This document shows positions 11,296-60,829 of a DNA stretch of 64,000 bases, piece by piece. Location: contig JADKKK010000003.1 of assembly GCA_016720545.1 (NCBI GenBank), positions 345,516 through 409,515 on the forward strand. Direction: 5' to 3'. Numbering within the stretch: position 1 is the first letter of the stretch; each line of letters begins with the position of its first letter. The stretch is from Myxococcales bacterium. Lineage in GTDB: Bacteria; Myxococcota_A; Polyangia; Polyangiales; Polyangiaceae. Both the position numbers and the translations under genes were made by a program. The notes beneath the pieces are model-generated. The model worked only from the letters and a program-made list of their open reading frames with translations, searched no databases and was not told the origin of the DNA.

Positions 11296-12723
11296 TTGAC
11301 TGCCCACGCTGGGATCAGAGCCTCAGGAGAGTGCCCCGTGTCCGACCCCGTGACCACTTCGCGTTCTGCCCGTGAATCCTTGGCTCGTGGCCTCGCCGCG
11401 CTCCAGGTCGACCCAAGCACTCCGCCCGCCATCCTCGAGATAGCAGAGCCCATCGCGCTCGCCATGGGCTCGCTCCACAAAATCGAGAGCTCGCAAGGGG
11501 CAGCGCTCGTGCCCAACGCGGAGACCGCGCTCGGTCACGTGCGGGCCGCGCTGTCGCAGCTCCAGGCGCAGACCTCCGGCCACCCCTCGGTGCCCAACGC
11601 CATGGAGGCGGTCGCGGCGTCGCTCGGCCTCGTGCACCAGCTCTCGAAGATGGTGACCGGGCCGTCGGTCGCGCCGGCCGCGCCGGCCGCGCCGGCCGCG
11701 CCCGTGCAAGTCGCCCCCGTCGCCCCCGCCGCCCCCACCGCCCCCGCCGCCCCCGCCGCCCCCGCCGCGGCAGCGGTCCCACGCCTCGGCACCCAGCCGC
11801 TCGCTCCGGCGATGGCCCCGCGGCCCGTGGCGGCCCCGCAAGCCCCGATGGCCCCGATGGCGCAAGCCCCGATGGCCCCGCAAGCCCCGATGGCCCCGCA
11901 AGCCCCGATGGCCCCGCAAGCCCCGATGGCCCCGCAAGCCCCGATGGCCCCGCAAGCCCCGACGGCCCCGCAAGCCCCGGCGTTCGCTCACCAGCCGGTG
12001 GCTCACCAGCCCGCTCCCCAGCAGGCCCCGCAGTTCGCCCCCCCGCCCGTGGCTCACCAGCCCGCTCCCCAGCAGGCCCCGCTGCAGGCGCCGCCGCAAG
12101 CGTTCGCGCCCCAGCCCATGGCCCAGCAGCCCGCGCCTCCGCAGGCGTTCGCGCCCCAGCCCGTCGCGGCCCCCCAGTTCGCTCCCGCGCAGCAGCCCGC
12201 TCCGCAGTTTGCCGCGCCTCCGCAGCAGCAGCCCACGCTGGCGCAGACCGTGGCGCTCGGCCAGCCCCAGCCCCAGGGTATGCAGCACACGCTCCCGGTA
12301 GCCCCCCAGGCCGCGCCGGACCCGTTCGCGGCGCCCCGCGGCTCCGCTCCCGCGCCTGCGCCCGCCGCCGCCGGAGGCCCAGGCCGGCCGGTGCCGGTGC
12401 TGAACGCCGACCTCGGCGCCCACAGCCCCACGAACTTCTACAAGGGGCTCTCGGGCAACGACGTCGTCGATCACGGCGGCCTGTTCGTTGCAACCTACAT
12501 GATCCCGAAGATCGGCAGCCCAGTGCGGCTGCACGTCTCGCTGCCCGGCGGGTATGAGTTCGACGCGGAGGCGATCGTGCGCTGGGCGCGGGACCAGGCC
12601 GGCAGCTCGGAGAGCGCGCTCCCCGGCTTCGGCGCGCAGTTCACGAACATCTCGCCGGAAGCGCGCCAGCTCATTTACCGCTACGTGCGCAACCGCGAGC
12701 CGCTCTTCCACGACGACCTGTAG
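11296..12723 (+). CDS. PilZ-domain protein with long Pro/Ala/Gln-rich low-complexity region, including 6 tandem PMAPQA hexapeptides
   Basis: Intact 475-aa ORF. C-terminal PilZ-like segment LHVSLPGGYEFDAEAIVRWARD...GFGAQFTNISPEARQLIYRYV. 18-bp DNA repeats at about 11848-11965. Confidence 0.7.
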   Translation: MTAHAGIRASGECPVSDPVTTSRSARESLARGLAALQVDPSTPPAILEIAEPIALAMGSLHKIESSQGAALVPNAETALGHVRAALSQLQAQTSGHPSVPNAMEAVAASLGLVHQLSKMVTGPSVAPAAPAAPAAPVQVAPVAPAAPTAPAAPAAPAAAAVPRLGTQPLAPAMAPRPVAAPQAPMAPMAQAPMAPQAPMAPQAPMAPQAPMAPQAPMAPQAPTAPQAPAFAHQPVAHQPAPQQAPQFAPPPVAHQPAPQQAPLQAPPQAFAPQPMAQQPAPPQAFAPQPVAAPQFAPAQQPAPQFAAPPQQQPTLAQTVALGQPQPQGMQHTLPVAPQAAPDPFAAPRGSAPAPAPAAAGGPGRPVPVLNADLGAHSPTNFYKGLSGNDVVDHGGLFVATYMIPKIGSPVRLHVSLPGGYEFDAEAIVRWARDQAGSSESALPGFGAQFTNISPEARQLIYRYVRNREPLFHDDL

Positions 12724-15098: not shown

Positions 15099-16337
15099 TC
15101 AGCGGAGCCCGAGCGCTACGCCGACGACCACGCTCCCGCCGACCACGATGATCCACGCGAGCGTCCAGCCGAGCGCCCGACGCGGCGGAGTGACGGGCCG
15201 CTTCGACACGGTCTGCGACACCCGCGACCGGCTCGGGCGCTCGCGATCGGCGTCGCCCGTGCGGCGGCTATTCGGGGGGCGCGGCGAGAGCGAGGGCTCG
15301 GTGGTGCTCGCTTCGGCGGCGAACGGACCGGCGCTCGACGGCGTCGGCCCCGTGCGCTTGGTCTCGGGCACCGGCTCCTCGGGCGCCGGAGCCGGCGGGG
15401 TCTCCGGCGGGAGCGCGGCGCGCTCGGGCACGTCGTCGGGCTCGTCGGGGAAGATCTCGGCGCGCTCGAGCGAGGCCCGCATGGCGCCGGCCGACGAGTA
15501 GCGGTTGTTCGGGTCCTTCGACAGCGCGCGGAGCACGATCGCGGTCACGGCGGGCGAGAGGCCAGGCACCTTCGCCGCGGGCGAGGGCGGCGGCTCGGTG
15601 AGGTGGGCCGTGAGCACGGCGAGCGGCGTCTCCCCGCCGAAGGGAAGGGCGCCGGTGAGCATTTCGTAGAGCATCACCCCGCACGCGTAGAGATCGCACC
15701 GGCCGTCGAGCTCGTCGCCTTGGGCTTGCTCCGGAGACATGTACTCCGGCGTGCCAAACACCATGTTGAGGGTGGTGAGGTTGGTCGTCCCGGTGCCGCT
15801 GCCGCCGTTGACGATCTTCGAGAGGCCGAAGTCGACGACGGTGGCCCGCTCGGCGGCGTCGACGAGCACGTTGTGCGGCTTCAGGTCGCGGTGGATCACC
15901 CCCTGTCCGTGAGCGCACTCGAGCGCCTCGAGCACCTGCTTGGCGATGGCCACTGCGCGCGCCTCCGGGAGCTTGCCGTCTGCGATGAGTCGGTCGAGCG
16001 GCCGGCCATCGATGCGGGGCAGCGCGAGGCAGAGGAGGGGCACGCCGCCGGCCGGGTTCTCGACCTCGCCGACCTCGAGGATGCGGCACACGTGCGGCCC
16101 TTCGAGGCGGCGCAGGATGGCGCCCTCGCGCATGAAACGCCCGCGGATCTGCACCTCGCTCGCGAGGTGAGGGTGCATGACCTTGAGCGCGACGGACTCG
16201 CCGCTCGCGGTATCGCGTGCAGAATACACGACGCCCGTGCCGCCTTCGCCAAGTACGCCTTCGACCTCGTACTTGCCGAGCACGACCGCGCCCCGCCGGA
16301 GGCGCTCTTCGCTGGTGGTGCTCGCCGGGCCGTCCAT
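15099..16337 (-). CDS. Ser/Thr protein kinase with C-terminal TM anchor
   Basis: GEGGTGVVY, VALKVM, HRDLKPHNVLV, DFGLS, GTPEYMSPE. C-terminal WTLAWIIVVGGSVVVGVALGL. Confidence 0.9.
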   Translation of the reverse strand: MDGPASTTSEERLRRGAVVLGKYEVEGVLGEGGTGVVYSARDTASGESVALKVMHPHLASEVQIRGRFMREGAILRRLEGPHVCRILEVGEVENPAGGVPLLCLALPRIDGRPLDRLIADGKLPEARAVAIAKQVLEALECAHGQGVIHRDLKPHNVLVDAAERATVVDFGLSKIVNGGSGTGTTNLTTLNMVFGTPEYMSPEQAQGDELDGRCDLYACGVMLYEMLTGALPFGGETPLAVLTAHLTEPPPSPAAKVPGLSPAVTAIVLRALSKDPNNRYSSAGAMRASLERAEIFPDEPDDVPERAALPPETPPAPAPEEPVPETKRTGPTPSSAGPFAAEASTTEPSLSPRPPNSRRTGDADRERPSRSRVSQTVSKRPVTPPRRALGWTLAWIIVVGGSVVVGVALGLR

Positions 16338-16501
16338 CGCCGCGGCAGGATACCCGACACGCGAGCGGGCGCGAGCCTGGCGCTCCGTGCGCCAACGGTG
16401 CGTTACCCCGCACTTCCTGCGCCGCCCTCGGAGGAGCCCCGGGGCGCCCTCTCAGGTATCCGCGGGCCGCCGCTTGTCACGCGCCTTGCTTGGGTTGGTT
16501 C

Positions 16502-17839
16502 ATGGGCGACCGCTCGGCTCGCGTGCTCCATCTCGCCGTCTTGGCCGTGGTCCTCGCGACTTCGCAGGCGGGGCGCGGAGCTCCCCCCACCGACGCGTGC
16601 TCGCTGCGCGGCGCCGCGGGCGCCCGGGAGAGCGCCTCGCCGCTCGCCTGGCCGCTCGCGGTGACCCCCGCCTTCGCCGAGCCGAGAGGCGGCGCCCCGA
16701 CGCCCGACGAGCTCGCCGGCGGGTGGACGGGCACGGCCTCAATCACCGCGGCGCGGAGCCCGATGAAGCCCGTGGAGAGCGCGATGGCGCCCCACCTCGG
16801 GGTCGCGAGGGACATCGAAGCGGAGGCGAGCGCGTCGAGCGCCGGGGCGACCTTTGCGTTCGGAGGAAAAGGAAGCGCGTGGAGCTGCCCCTTCACGCTG
16901 GCCCGCGGGACGCTCAGCTGCACGACGCAGGTCTACGGCTACCGCATGACGATGACCGGCGCGCTCACGCGGTCGGGCGGCACGCTCCGGGTGAGCGGCG
17001 CCTGGAGCGCCTCGCAGCCCATGCTCACGCTGCGCGGCTCGTGGAGCCTGGAGAAGCCCTCGAGCGACGTGGAGATCGAGCTGCTCCACCCCGCCGGCCG
17101 GAGCCCGAGGGTCTTCACGTCGGGCTGGCTCTTTGGCGCGCGCTGCGTTCGCGGGAAGGGCACGCCCCGCGAGGTCGACCTCACGGCGGAGGTCGAGTGG
17201 GGTGGCACCGCCACGTTCACGCCGCCGCGCGGGACGCCCGTCCGCCCGCGCTTCGCGACCACGGGCAAGAACAAGCTCACCCTCACCTGCGACGGCGCCA
17301 AGAAGACCTTCGTGATCGAGACGGTCGGCACCGCCCGCTTCGCGCGGATGGGTCACTTGGCCTCCGCCCCTGCTGACGCGCACGGCTGCGGGGCCTGCCC
17401 ACACCCCGCGGTGACGGGGCCGATCGTCCAGGGGAGCCCATCCGTGCTCATCGACGGCTTCCCTGCCGCGCGCGTCGGCGACTACGGAGTGCACGCCGCG
17501 TGCTGCGGCGCCAACACGTTCCGTGTCGCCGCCGGCAACGACCACGGCGTGCTGATCGACGGTCGCCCCGCGACGACGATGGGCGCGCGTACGGTGCACT
17601 GCGGCGGGACCGGGAAGATCATCGAGGGCGCTGCGGGCAACTACGAGCCGCCATCGTTCGCCGAGGAGGCCAGCGGCGGCTTCTTTGGGGTCCCGAGCCC
17701 CGCGCCAGCGCGCGCGCCGGCGACGAGGCCACGCGCCACGGCGTCGTCCACGACGTCGACCGCAGTCGAGCCGCCGGTGGCGGCCGACGTGAAGCTCGAC
17801 GCGCCGGCCCCCGAGGACCTCGCGGCGCAGCGAGCGTGA
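16502..17839 (+). CDS. Secreted protein with C-terminal PAAR-like domain
   Basis: Signal peptide MGDRSARVLHLAVLAVVLATSQA. C-terminal half has two PAAR-type repeats: GPIVQGSPSVLIDGFPAARVGDYGVHAACCG and DHGVLIDGRPATTMGARTVHCGGTGKIIEGAAGN. Confidence 0.65.
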   Translation: MGDRSARVLHLAVLAVVLATSQAGRGAPPTDACSLRGAAGARESASPLAWPLAVTPAFAEPRGGAPTPDELAGGWTGTASITAARSPMKPVESAMAPHLGVARDIEAEASASSAGATFAFGGKGSAWSCPFTLARGTLSCTTQVYGYRMTMTGALTRSGGTLRVSGAWSASQPMLTLRGSWSLEKPSSDVEIELLHPAGRSPRVFTSGWLFGARCVRGKGTPREVDLTAEVEWGGTATFTPPRGTPVRPRFATTGKNKLTLTCDGAKKTFVIETVGTARFARMGHLASAPADAHGCGACPHPAVTGPIVQGSPSVLIDGFPAARVGDYGVHAACCGANTFRVAAGNDHGVLIDGRPATTMGARTVHCGGTGKIIEGAAGNYEPPSFAEEASGGFFGVPSPAPARAPATRPRATASSTTSTAVEPPVAADVKLDAPAPEDLAAQRA

Positions 17840-18423
17840 CGCTGCGCACCGAGCCTGGTGCGACGCGGGTCGTCCGCAACACGCCCGACGGCGCGGCGAG
17901 CCCCGCCTCCGCCATCGCCGTCCTGCCATCGTCGGGAGTCACGAGACGCCCGGAGGGGACGATCCACCTGACGCGGGGCGCGATCGTGGTCACCACGTTG
18001 CCCCCGGCCAAGCAGCTCATCGAGACCGACGCGGGCACGGTGGAGCTCGGCTCGCAGGCGCGCGTCGCGCTAGTCGACGGCGCCGTGGACGTGGCGCTGC
18101 TGGCAGGGAACGCCACACTCCGACCGCGAAGTGGGCCCGAGCTCCGGCTCTCCGCGGGGCAGTCGGTCCGCTTCACAGCGAAGGGGGCGATGGCCCCGCC
18201 GGCGGCGATGTCGCCCACGGAGGTCGGCGACGCCGTGCGCGCCCTGGTCGACCCCAAGGCGGCCGCGGCGACGGCCGGCTCCGAGGAGGAGCTCCACCCG
18301 CTCCTGCGCGACCGGCGGCTGTGGATGGCCCTCGGCGCCGGGGTGGCGATCGCCGCAGCCGTCATGGCGGCGGTGGTGCTCGCCCTCGCGAGCAGGCGCA
18401 AGGGCGGACCCGCGGCCCGGTGA
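17836..18423 (+). CDS. FecR-like beta-sandwich protein with C-terminal TM helix; GTG start overlaps upstream stop
   Basis: LIETDAGTVELGSQARVALVDGAVDVALLAGNATLRPRSGPELRLSAGQSV resembles a FecR domain. C-terminal RLWMALGAGVAIAAAVMAAVVLALASRRKG. Confidence 0.5.
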   Translation: MTLRTEPGATRVVRNTPDGAASPASAIAVLPSSGVTRRPEGTIHLTRGAIVVTTLPPAKQLIETDAGTVELGSQARVALVDGAVDVALLAGNATLRPRSGPELRLSAGQSVRFTAKGAMAPPAAMSPTEVGDAVRALVDPKAAAATAGSEEELHPLLRDRRLWMALGAGVAIAAAVMAAVVLALASRRKGGPAAR

Positions 18424-18483
18424 GACCCGTGGTGATCGAGCGATGCAGGTTGACACCCGCGCTCAGACTGCAACCTTCTGCGG

Positions 18484-19897
18484 ATGCGCCTCCGCACGCC
18501 CGCTCTTCCGCCTCGCTTGCCACGCTTGCCACGCTTGCCACGCTTGCCACGCTTGCCACGCGCCCTCGGCGCGCTCGGCTTCGCGGCGGCCGTCACCTCC
18601 TCCGCGACCCTCGCCCGCGCCGCCACGCTGGAGGTAGGGCCGGGCAAGCAGTACGCGGAGCTGTCGGCCATCGCCCGCATCGTGAAGCCGGGCGACGTCG
18701 TGGAGGTGCAGGGCGACCACACCTACGCGCCCGTCGAGTTCAACGTGAACGCCACGCAGGCGGCGCCGATCACCATCCGCGGGGTCCGCGTGAACGGCAA
18801 GCGCCCGATCGTGAAGGGCGGCGAGAACACGGTGCTCTTGCACGGAAACTTCTACACTTTCGAGGGCTTCGAGGTCACGGGCGGCACCGGAATCTGCGTG
18901 GTCCACAGCGCCAACGGGGTAACCCTCCGCGACGACGTGATCCACGACTGCCCGCGCCACGGCATCCTCGGGACCGACAGCGAGGCCGGCTCGCTCCTGA
19001 TGGAGTACGTGGAGGTGTACGCGGCCGGCAGCGAGCGCGCCGGCGAGGCGCTGAAGCACCCGGTGTACATCGCGACCAACGAGAGGATGTACCCGAAGTC
19101 GGTCTTCCGCATGCAGCACTGCTACGTGCATGACGCGAACGGCGGCAACTCGGTCAAGTCGCGCGCCGAGCGCAACGAGATCTACGGCAACTGGCTCGAG
19201 GGCGCGCAGTACTACGAGCTCGAGCTGATCGGCCCCGACGACGACAGCGGCGACACGGTCACCGCCCCGCGCGAAGACGGGGACGTCGTGGGCAACGTGC
19301 TCCTCCAGACCAAGTCGACCTCGTACGTCGTGCGCGTCGGCGGCGACGGCACGGGCCGCACTGGCGGGCGCTACCGCTTCGTGAACAACACGTTCATCGT
19401 CGGCAGTCACGCGAACAACGCGGGCGCGATGCGGGCCTCGTACGCGCTCGACTCGCTCGAGCTCTACAACAACGTCTTCTCCAGGGCCTCCGGCCGGATG
19501 GACTACCTCGTCCGCGAGACCGATCTCACCTGGATCGCGGGCCGCCAAATCGCCGGCGCGAACAACTACATCACCCAGGGCTCGGGCAACATCCCCGCTA
19601 CCCTCACCGGGAACATCTTGGGCACCAACCCGGATTCGTGGACCTCGCGAAGAAGGACCTGCGCCTCGCCGCCCCCCCGCGCCGGGTACGCCCGAGCCGC
19701 CGCCCGGGGTGGTGCCCGGATTGCCGGGGCTGCCGGGGGCGAGCGACGACGGGGGACCCGGCAGCACGGCCACCACGAGCTCGGGATGCGGCTGCGGCGC
19801 GGTGGGCACTCCAACCCACTCGCTGCTCGCCGGGGCAAGCCTCGTCGCAGCGCTTGGACTGCTCAGCCGCGCGCGCGCGCGGCGACGCGGTCGCTGA
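18484..19897 (+). pseudogene. Right-handed parallel beta-helix (pectate-lyase-fold) surface protein with MYXO-CTERM sorting signal; frameshifted near the 3' end
   Basis: Signal ...ALGALGFAAAVTSSATLARA. Beta-helix repeats (NTVLLHGNFYTFEGFEVTGG, GICVVHSANGVTLRDDVIHDC, HCYVHDANGGNSV). Tail in another frame [45 protein letters not shown] is a MYXO-CTERM-like GCGC-TM-Arg cluster. Confidence 0.65.
18497..18541. repeat. Perfect 9-bp tandem repeat (CTTGCCACG) x5 at the extreme 5' end or start region of the beta-helix gene
   Basis: Seen directly. Encodes LPRLPRLPRLPRLPR in the gene frame. Confidence 0.9.
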
Positions 19898-19987
19898 CAG
19901 ACTCCGAGCCCTGCCCGGTGCCGCGGCTCGTGCCACGTGGGCCGCTCGGGTCTTGCGCACTCGGGCGCATCGGCCATACTCCGCCGA

Positions 19988-20933
19988 ATGCGCGCCCTCT
20001 TCCTTGCACTGCCGCTGATTCTCGCACCATTCGCCACCTTCGCGTGCTCCAGCGACGATCCGGGCGATTCGGGCACCTCGCCGACGTCCACGTCCACCAC
20101 CACGACGCCCGTGCCCTCCGTGCTCCCCGACGGCGCCCCCAACCCGACGCCACGGCGACGACCGACGGCGGGGCCCCGGTCCCGACGGCACGGTGCCCCT
20201 GACCGACAGCGGCAACCGTCCACGCCCGGCGTCGTCGGAGCGAACGGCATCGCCGACTGGGACGCTCGGCGACAAGGCCCAGGTCAAGGTATTCCGCAGC
20301 TTCTTCTTGCACCAGTCGGTGGGCGGCGACCTGGAGGACGTCGCGCAGTTCAACGGCTACAAGTTCGAGTACGCGACGAGCGGCTCCACGAACCTCAGGC
20401 CGGGGCTCAACGGCGGGCTGTTCTCCACCAGCAACGGCAACCCGGCGGGCAAAATCGCCGAGTTTCGCTCGATGGCGCTGGCCAACAAGTCGAACCTCCG
20501 CGTGGCGATCATGAAGTTCGGCTACGCCGACATCGTCGCCGGCAAGGTCGCGGGCGCGCAGACCGCCTACGAGGCGGCCGTCGCCGCCGTGAAGGCCGAG
20601 GGCGTGCGCGTGCTCCACGTCACGCCGCCGTTCGTCTACAACGTGCCCGCAGAGAACGCGCCCAAGCAGGCGATGCGCACGTGGATGATGACCACGTTCC
20701 CGAACGACATCATCTTCGACCTGCAAGACATCGAGAGCACCGAGCCCGGGAGCGGCACGCGCTGCGAGCGCGGCGGCTCGTGGGAGATCTGCAACTCGAT
20801 CCGCTCGACGAGCGGCTGTGCGAGCCTCAATCAGGGCGTCGACTCGGCCTCGGGTCAGGGCCACCTCTGCTACACGCACGCCAAGCGCATCTCGAAGGCG
20901 TTCCTTTACGCGATCTACCTCGCGGGCAAGTGA
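19988..20933 (+). pseudogene. Lipoprotein of unknown function; one frameshift between the signal/linker and the body
   Basis: MRALFLALPLILAPFATFACSSDDPGDSGTSPTSTSTTTTP lipobox. Body ...KVFRSFFLHQSVGGDLEDVAQFNGYKFEYATSG...LHVTPPFVYNV... Confidence 0.55.
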
Positions 20934-49365: not shown

Positions 49366-49841
49366 TCAGGGCTTCCTTTTCGGCGCGGCGGCCTTCTTCT
49401 TCGGCGCGGCCTTCTTCGGCGCGGCGGCCTTCTTCGGCGCGGCGGCCTTCTTCGGCGCGGCGGCCTTCTTCGGCGCGGCCGCCGGCGCGGCTTGCTCCCA
49501 TATGCCGAGCGCCGCGCCCGAGGGATCGAGGAAGACGCCGAGCGCCCCCATGTTGGGGATGGGCTGGTACTCGACCAGGATCGTGGCGCCGCGCTTCTTC
49601 GCCTTCGCGATGGTCTTCTTCACGCTGTCGACCTGCACGTATGGCAACCACTGCTTCGGCGCGCCGGGCGTCGGGTTCGGGCCCATACCGCCCCCAGCCC
49701 CGGGGCCGTTGCCGACGCCGAGCATGGTGTAGCCCGGCATAGGCGACGTGAACTCCCACGCGAAGAGGCCCTTGTAGAACTTCTTCGAGGCTGCGAGGTC
49801 GGAGGTGTTGAGCTCGATGTGAACGAATGCATTCGGCATGG
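49366..49841 (-). CDS. VOC (glyoxalase/bleomycin-resistance fold) protein fused to a Lys/Ala/Pro-rich histone-H1-like tail: (AAPKKA)n
   Basis: MPNAFVHIELNTSDLAASKKFYKGLFAWEF... then PKKAAAPKKAAAPKKAAAPKKAAPKKKAAAPKRKP. Encoded by a 21-bp DNA repeat x4. RBS GGAG upstream. Confidence 0.7.
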
Positions 49842-60380: not shown

Positions 60381-60829
60381 GCGCTCTAGCTAGCTAAGCT
60401 AGTCGCTGCGCTTTCGGCTCCGGGACCGCTTGCTCCGGGTCCGGCACCTCAGGCTTGGGGCCGGTCACTTTTTTCCCTTTCTCGGCCGCCTCTCGCTCCC
60501 GCTCCGCGCGCTTTGCGATGGCCTCCGCGGGCGGGCCTCACTTCCAGGTTCGCCATCGCCCGTGGTGAAGCGGTTGAAGCGGTCGCCGCGGTGGAGATCG
60601 CCGCCCACGCGGGGGACGCCACCCAAGAAGCGGCCGACCGATGCGTCGTCCTCGGGGATCGGTTGGTGGCGCTCCTCACGGGCCTCATCCGCCGCTGAGG
60701 GTTCGCGCTCGCCGCCCGCGGCTTCGGGTCGCGGTCGCGGTCGGGGGTCGGGGTCGCGGTCGGGGGTCGCGGGTCGGGGTCGCGGTCGGGTGGCGTTGGT
60801 CTTTTCCCGACACACTCCTAGCTAGAGCG
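60381..60829. mobile_element. ~450-bp MITE-like element bounded by perfect 12-bp inverted repeats CGCTCTAGCTAG / CTAGCTAGAGCG. Contains hexanucleotide (GGGTCG/CGGTCG) repeats and a small RP/DP-rich ORF (60465..60815, minus strand).
   Basis: Seen directly. Termini share GCGCTCTAG with the 14937-15097 family. Confidence 0.55.

Follow-up and report, generated by a model that had tools for sequence, protein, structure and literature searches.

A copy-number-variable, in-frame 9-bp tandem repeat in the predicted signal-peptide region of a beta-helix protein gene from uncultured Polyangia

In-frame coding tandem repeats of variable number (VNTRs) are familiar from genes of surface and secreted proteins, including the 24-bp X-region of Staphylococcus aureus spa, the PE/PPE genes of Mycobacterium tuberculosis and the MIRU-VNTR loci. 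The in-frame bias of PE/PPE repeats and their changes in copy number have been described (PMC12817950), and a general review is relevant to coding VNTRs as a class (PMC3899988). Here we describe a 9-bp array in a window of 64,000 nucleotides, by which we mean the whole stretch of DNA that was analysed. The array resembles the spa, PE/PPE and MIRU loci in that its unit length is a multiple of three, its copy number varies between strains and its units are homogenised; as with in-frame coding VNTRs in general, the gene lies in a high-GC genome and its product is predicted to be exported. Unlike VNTRs of the spa and PE/PPE type, the array falls within a signal peptide that would be cleaved, leaving the mature protein unchanged, and its host is an uncultured environmental myxobacterium.

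The opa genes of Neisseria, in which CTCTT pentamers lie in the signal-peptide coding region, are classical contingency loci (PMC3960869, PMC3899988). The locus described here is similar in carrying a slippage-prone repeat in the leader-peptide coding part of a predicted surface-protein gene. However, the opa unit is not a multiple of three and its slippage switches translation on and off, whereas a 9-nt unit keeps the frame. The NanH3 sialidase gene of Gardnerella reportedly contains a slippage-prone tract as well. In promoters, the 7-bp repeats of Haemophilus influenzae hmw tune expression. Tandem repeats in promoters of M. tuberculosis likewise tune expression (PMC12817950). Our array is like these promoter repeats in having a variable copy number near the 5′ end of a gene, and unlike them in lying downstream of the predicted −35/−10 elements and start codon, so that promoter geometry would be untouched. 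By analogy only, it also recalls the ESPR of autotransporters and two-partner-secretion proteins, given an unusually long N-terminal extension before a normal h-region and a right-handed beta-helix passenger. Unlike the (LPR)n repeat, the ESPR is a conserved motif of fixed length, and the two are without sequence resemblance.

When the window (71.8% G+C) was read directly, we found that positions 18516–18560 of the plus strand hold five perfect head-to-tail copies of CTTGCCACG, preceded by a partial degenerate unit, GCCTCG, at 18510–18515. Tandem Repeats Finder reported the array at 18510–18561 with a period of 9, 5.8 copies and 97% matches. Perfect 9-nt periodicity extends over 48 nt (18514–18561). 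By comparison, 20 first-order Markov randomisations yielded perfect arrays (period 4–30) of at most 17–25 nt, demonstrating that the array is real and that its head-to-tail copies, as in a VNTR, exceed chance. The initial annotation had described five perfect 9-bp copies at 18484–18560. The number of copies and the end of the array were correct, while 18484 is the position of an ATG and the array itself begins at 18516. No other occurrence of CTTGCCACG was found on either strand of the whole window. The array is nevertheless not one of a kind there, given two longer perfect arrays of 18-bp units, with 5.7 copies (11861–11962) and 4.1 copies (49406–49479), both with a period divisible by three.

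In the register of ATG 18484 the array reads (TTG CCA CGC)5, which encodes (LPR)5 in codons 18517–18561 and is followed by ALGALGFAAAVTSSATLARA|ATLEVG. Translation from this ATG thus places (LPR)5 ahead of the signal-peptide h-region, as had been proposed. The unit is built from rare codons: among Leu codons TTG makes up 4.9%, and among Pro codons CCA makes up 6.0%, as counted over 23 high-GC3 ORFs of the window. Owing to the array, 10 rare codons fall in codons 12–26. Such a unit fits amplification of a pre-existing unit, not selection on sequence. We judged minus-strand ORFs over the array (for example 17619–18722, which would read (GKR)n) to be high-GC artefacts, since both the homologues and the GC3 signature belong to the plus-strand frame.

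We retrieved DNA from 14 related contigs and compared it across the array. Three lineages were distinguished, with lineage A comprising contigs of at least 98.5% nucleotide identity to the window over shared kilobases, lineage B being about 87–91% and lineage C about 85% identical to the window. The comparison of counts in lineages A and B covered nine assemblies, including L002 at about 2x coverage. Within lineage A, GCCTCG is followed by five units in the window and by six in L002, and GCCACG is followed by five units in L003, L004 and L012 and by three in L005. Copy number therefore differs within the species, as in a VNTR, with 3, 5 or 6 copies at a flank identity of at least 98.5%. Lineage B carries 3–4 units of the variant CTTGCCTCG. 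L001 has three of these and then a degenerate unit, L006 has the same arrangement with one extra CTCGCCTCG unit, and L013 has four units, one being the variant CGTGCCTCG. In the seven contigs of lineage C the array is degenerate at the DNA level (CTG CCT CGG / TTG CCC CGC / CTG CCT CGC / CTC GCG CGC) and still encodes LPR-LPR-LPR; its length is the same in 7/7. A metagenome scan with the conserved promoter pattern described below recovered a single contig, L012, with its five copies.

Both SNP backgrounds of lineage A vary, indicating at least two copy-number events. The units are homogenised within a lineage, with CCA in all lineage A units and CCT in all lineage B units, suggesting that the units of an array evolve in concert. 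Furthermore, the most uniform arrays were the most variable, and the degenerate array of lineage C was constant in length. Variation on both backgrounds, homogenised units and the link between purity and instability appear as expected for slipped-strand mispairing. The initial annotation had put forward a length-variable locus, and the copy-number comparison among relatives supports this reading: near-identical contigs carry 3, 5 and 6 copies, so the number is not invariant and length variability stands. Taken across the relatives, the sequences appear to form a natural series of 0, 3, 4, 5 and 6 units.

We then considered the region upstream of the array, where TTGACA, 16 nt, TGcAACCTT, 6 nt and ATG follow one another on the plus strand. 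The −35-like hexamer TTGACA (18450–18455) does not differ between lineages A, B and C. An extended −10-like element, TGc AACCTT (18469–18477), was recognised by cross-locus conservation. Its hexamer (18472–18477, 16 nt after the −35) has A at position 2 and T at position 6 and agrees with the consensus at 2/6 positions. A consensus promoter and terminator scan of 18000–20600 reported nothing; two matches fail the 4-of-6 rule of the scanner, which explains its silence on the −10-like element, and the case for a promoter therefore rests on cross-locus conservation. We assessed this in 14 loci, three from the window and lineages B and C and a further 11 from more distant members of the family, among them Sorangium So ce26, So ce131 and two Polyangium. 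In 14/14, TTGAnn had nAnnnT 16–18 nt downstream, and the position of TTGAnn relative to ATG matched in the 11 more distant loci. The nAnnnT element lay exactly at −12 to −7 of the ATG in 12/14 and was offset by 1–2 nt in the other two. Among 33 distant loci, TTGA stood 28–31 nt ahead of the likely ATG in 11; the remaining offsets, up to 45 nt, together gave 5 occurrences. The two hexamers place the predicted +1 within 0–2 nt of the ATG in 14/14 loci, pointing to a predicted leaderless mRNA that would start at the A of ATG 18484. The results also suggest that leaderless-type geometry runs, as it seems, through the whole Polyangia protein family. The initial annotation had offered, as an alternative, that unit number might set the spacing between promoter and start. 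Because the predicted promoter, with its conserved −35/−10 pair, and the ATG are both upstream of the array, copy number would not alter this spacing.

The ORF from ATG 18484 reads MRLRTPALPPR(LPR)5ALGALGFAAAVTSSATLARA|ATLEVGPGK..., and its first 46 codons (18484–18621, plus strand) would encode the signal peptide. Inspection revealed Sec-type features, with an n-region, MRLRTPALPPR(LPR)5, that holds 8 Arg and is far longer than usual, an h-region, ALGALGFAAAVTSSATL, and a c-region, ARA|A. An AlphaFold2 (AF2) model of the 3-copy allele placed a helix on the h-region and had low confidence for residues 1–17. A twin-arginine or lipoprotein signal was rejected by inspection, there being no RR-x-F-L-K motif and no lipobox Cys. 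With 3, 5 and 6 units the n-region would be 20, 26 and 29 residues long and contain 6, 8 and 9 Arg. The repeat thus appears to lengthen the positively charged n-region of a predicted Sec signal peptide, which is 46 aa here versus 22–33 aa in orthologues. Predicted cleavage on export would remove the repeat-bearing n-region, and only this region would change with unit number. As the unit is 9 nt long, the frame is unchanged at every copy number and no frameshift switch can arise. Of the effects that had been foreseen for changes in unit number, a kept frame held good, an altered n-region is predicted, and altered promoter-to-start spacing is not supported.

When the first 123–195 nt of the putative mRNA were folded with 0–8 units, no trend in 5′ AUG accessibility was seen, the probability that nt 1–12 are unpaired being 0.49–0.57 throughout. 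A mechanism through RNA structure was dropped, as accessibility was flat across unit numbers. Rfam gave zero RNA family matches in 18300–18750 at E up to 1. A search with the 52-aa N-terminus against 5.8 billion proteins returned no other (LPR)n signal peptide at E 1e-3; the query is short and of low complexity, which makes this result uninformative. Repeat number was not found to switch expression by frameshift or promoter spacing, and the suggestion of a contingency-type locus is not supported in the sense of an expression switch, since slippage by 9 nt leaves the reading frame intact and the predicted accessibility of the AUG does not respond to unit number.

The region downstream of the signal peptide (18622–19627, plus strand, in the ATG frame) is predicted to form a mature right-handed beta-helix domain. 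With a limit of E 1e-5, the protein had 1659 homologues, most of them in Polyangia (Sorangium, Polyangium, Chondromyces, Labilithrix and many MAGs). Their sources name them right-handed parallel beta-helix or MYXO-CTERM proteins; JGI calls several of them MYXO-CTERM. Pfam PF13229 (Beta_helix) matched with E 3e-4 and 20.9 bits, under its cut-off of 25.9, and there was no sequence match for the protein in PDB. The AF2 model of the intact 3-copy allele P0128 had a mean pLDDT of 82 and showed continuous short strands forming a beta-helix over residues 42–390, a disordered Pro/Gly linker at 468–520 and a C-terminal helix at 520–540. A Foldseek comparison with PDB ranked the pectate lyase Pel9A first (1ru4, E 1.7e-8) and placed GH136 and PL6 enzymes next. 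The model thus has the properties of a right-handed parallel beta-helix with a pectate-lyase-like fold, and the pectate-lyase fold assigned earlier holds at the fold level. The product had also been called MYXO-CTERM-anchored. A MYXO-CTERM-like tail, consisting of SGCGCG..., a hydrophobic helix, RARARRRGR and a stop, is present at 19709–19897 (plus strand). The intact alleles P0121 and P0128 keep this tail in frame and end in it; in the window its frame differs from that of the N-terminal part. TIGR03901 scored 15.5 bits for the out-of-frame ORF of the window and 17.2 bits for P0125, with a cut-off of 20; the SGCGCG motif, the helix at 520–540 and an RRRR tail are visible in the intact protein.

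Taken together, we consider it probable that the array is a slippage-generated, nearly neutral in-frame VNTR in the tolerant, cleaved n-region of a Sec-type signal peptide. Replication slippage, we infer, would have made the array and would keep changing its copy number, in a gene from an uncultured species of Polyangia (Myxococcota) whose product, a right-handed beta-helix protein, is predicted to be secreted and sorted through MYXO-CTERM. Translation would run from ATG 18484, also the predicted 5′ end of the leaderless mRNA, and each unit would contribute Leu-Pro-Arg, and with it a single positive charge, to a change-tolerant segment that is cleaved on export. A different reading would make the array an untranslated 5′ leader, with translation starting at a TTG inside it or at its end and with array length setting the distance from promoter to start. 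TTG codons do lie inside the repeat, as the initial annotation had remarked; every unit holds one in frame, and two annotation pipelines chose one of them. The NCBI proteins P0131 (MBL0194271.1) and P0121 begin, through PGAP, at the last one (18552–18554, plus strand; MPRALGALG...), and the JGI proteins P0122 and P0123 begin, through IMG, at a TTG within the array. Moreover, a start at the last TTG would yield MPRALGALGFAAAVTSSATLARA, a canonical signal peptide of textbook form with 23 aa. However, direct reading showed no Shine-Dalgarno-like sequence ahead of any array TTG, or of ATG 18484, and lineage C has CTC at the codon equivalent to the NCBI start and a single TTG in its array. The lineage C units differ at three sites (C/T at position 1 of the Leu codon, T/C at position 3 of Pro and G/C at position 3 of Arg), and these differences are synonymous when read as LPR but not in the other frames. 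Outside the array, indels likewise come in multiples of three, with 6 nt just after the ATG between A and B/C and 3 nt between B and C, so that the array appears to be translated. ATG 18484 (18484–18486, plus strand, 28 nt after the −35) is kept in all three lineages. In 12/14 loci the ATG comes 6 nt after the conserved −10-like hexamer, as a 5′-terminal start codon would, and orthologues of 62–75% identity start MR... at the equivalent place, with signal peptides that lack the repeat; without its five units, the signal peptide of the window would be 31 aa. Translation most likely starts at ATG 18484, and we regard an untranslated array as very unlikely. As the promoter geometry predicts a leaderless mRNA from this ATG, the PGAP start inside the repeat (18552) is probably wrong. 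It is extremely improbable that the array, or the number of its copies, was created by poor polishing of a long-read assembly. Homopolymer deletions do cluster in 19628–20262 when the window is compared with three other assemblies, and the local consensus there is doubtful, but the array was recovered independently in six or more assemblies, which differ in sample and assembler (MEGAHIT k141, SPAdes NODE, NCBI MAGs and JGI), arrays of 27–54 nt are shorter than a read or the final k-mer, and only whole-unit indels occur in the 1.8 kb around it.

The array might also act as a rheostat, in a contingency-like manner, if slippage made the n-region longer, shorter or differently charged, or changed how many rare TTG and CCA codons follow closely on the start of the leaderless mRNA. 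The amount of beta-helix protein translated or exported would then vary in a heritable and reversible way within a population. The difference in copy number between near-identical strains on two SNP backgrounds, the 10 rare codons early in the gene and the predicted secretion or surface sorting of the protein are consistent with this, and lineage C, whose DNA has diverged, still encodes LPR, which suggests some constraint. Yet that constraint is read from three variable sites only, a 9-nt unit makes a frameshift switch impossible, the predicted accessibility of the 5′ AUG is unchanged over 0–8 units, and orthologues function without the repeat. Similar perfect in-frame arrays elsewhere in the window are, in addition, what generic slippage would give. 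We therefore hold a tunable signal peptide to be rather unlikely. A more specific version, in which the number of rare-codon units after the AUG of a leaderless mRNA sets the rate of translation or export of a surface-sorted polysaccharide-active enzyme, seems quite improbable. If true, a secreted enzyme would vary heritably and reversibly in wastewater Polyangia populations without frameshifts, through a contingency mechanism acting via signal-peptide length. Under the preferred reading of a nearly neutral VNTR, the locus looks like an ordinary slippage-prone coding repeat, not an on/off switch, and offers no new type of genetic switch. Neutrality is assumed here; 20–29 residues with 6–9 arginines make an unusual n-region, which could influence targeting or the rate of export.

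The value of the locus lies in the correction of a start codon, in the leaderless-type promoter geometry suggested for the family and in a natural allelic series for n-region length. The main practical consequence concerns annotation, because public records start the gene at a TTG inside the repeat and the comparison favours the upstream ATG. The allelic series could be used to probe the tolerance of a Sec signal peptide for changes in n-region length and charge, and the array could serve as a strain marker for an activated-sludge-type myxobacterium.

Finally, we examined the state of the gene in the window, using L003, L004 and L005, three independent assemblies of the same species, as references. 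The alignment defined a disrupted stretch at 19628–19673 (plus strand), in which the window is one C short in a C-run at 19628 and lacks 232 nt at 19673. Further downstream, single homopolymer bases are missing at 20142, 20169 and 20215, and CG is missing at 20262. In the 2.3 kb and 1.8 kb of upstream sequence that were aligned, the missing C at 19628, at their 3′ edge, was the sole small indel besides whole units. The 1-nt and 232-nt deletions break the gene as assembled and put the MYXO-CTERM-like tail out of frame. The deletions cluster in homopolymers, which makes a badly polished stretch likelier than decay, and the disruption probably reflects poor assembly. The window product is identical to public MBL0194271.1 (IPQ09_08640, from a Myxococcales MAG), out-of-frame tail included, and the intact allele is represented by MBK6463075.1/HQY64580.1 (P0121).

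When upstream regions were compared across the beta-helix/MYXO-CTERM family of Polyangia, we found TTGAnn and nAnnnT hexamers whose spacing places the predicted start of transcription at the ATG, an arrangement that occupies 18450-18486 in the window. The same hexamers were found, within about 40 nt upstream of each start, at 11 more distant family loci (L015, L016, L017, L020, L022, L025, L033, L035, L040, L056 and L062). This placement, read from sequence, suggests that leaderless mRNAs are a family-wide trait of these genes, including those of cultured Sorangium and Polyangium.

At its 3′ end the beta-helix gene runs into a disrupted stretch, 19628-20262. Compared with three further assemblies from this species, the window carries five small deletions of 1-2 nt here, all within homopolymers or CG runs, together with a deletion of 232 nt. 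These deletions shift the frame of two genes: the beta-helix gene itself and, downstream of it, a conserved gene (about 20019-20933) whose 316-aa product had no match in Pfam or NCBIfam. The stretch is probably poorly polished, and it is possible that the deletions represent real decay.

Upstream, a 1,431-bp segment of the window (16414-17844) was missing from all five other contigs of lineage A, the lineage at least 98.5% identical to the window. The segment holds most of a gene for a PAAR-motif protein, which has 648 aa (PF05488, E=4e-10) in lineage C, the lineage about 85% identical to the window. The deletion is flanked by a 5-bp direct repeat, CGCAC, and the 145-aa ORF left in the five contigs is the C-terminal end of the PAAR gene. 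With lineage C as reference, the window copy itself switches reading frame at about 17800-17884; tblastn placed the switch between 17821 and 17884, and DNA alignment revealed a 1-nt gap at GAGGAC-CTC. The gene is thereby split into two ORFs, 16217-17839 and 17500-18423.

Further long tandem arrays, nearly or fully perfect, were found at 11666-12098 and 49375-49483. Their periods (9, 18 and 51 bp) are all multiples of three, and two 18-bp arrays are perfect, with 5.7 copies at 11861-11962 and 4.1 copies at 49406-49479; presumably these are coding low-complexity repeats. An imperfect GGGTCGC-type array at 60725-60790, with periods of 6, 13, 19 and 26 bp, described as not multiples of three, differs in kind from the other arrays of the window.
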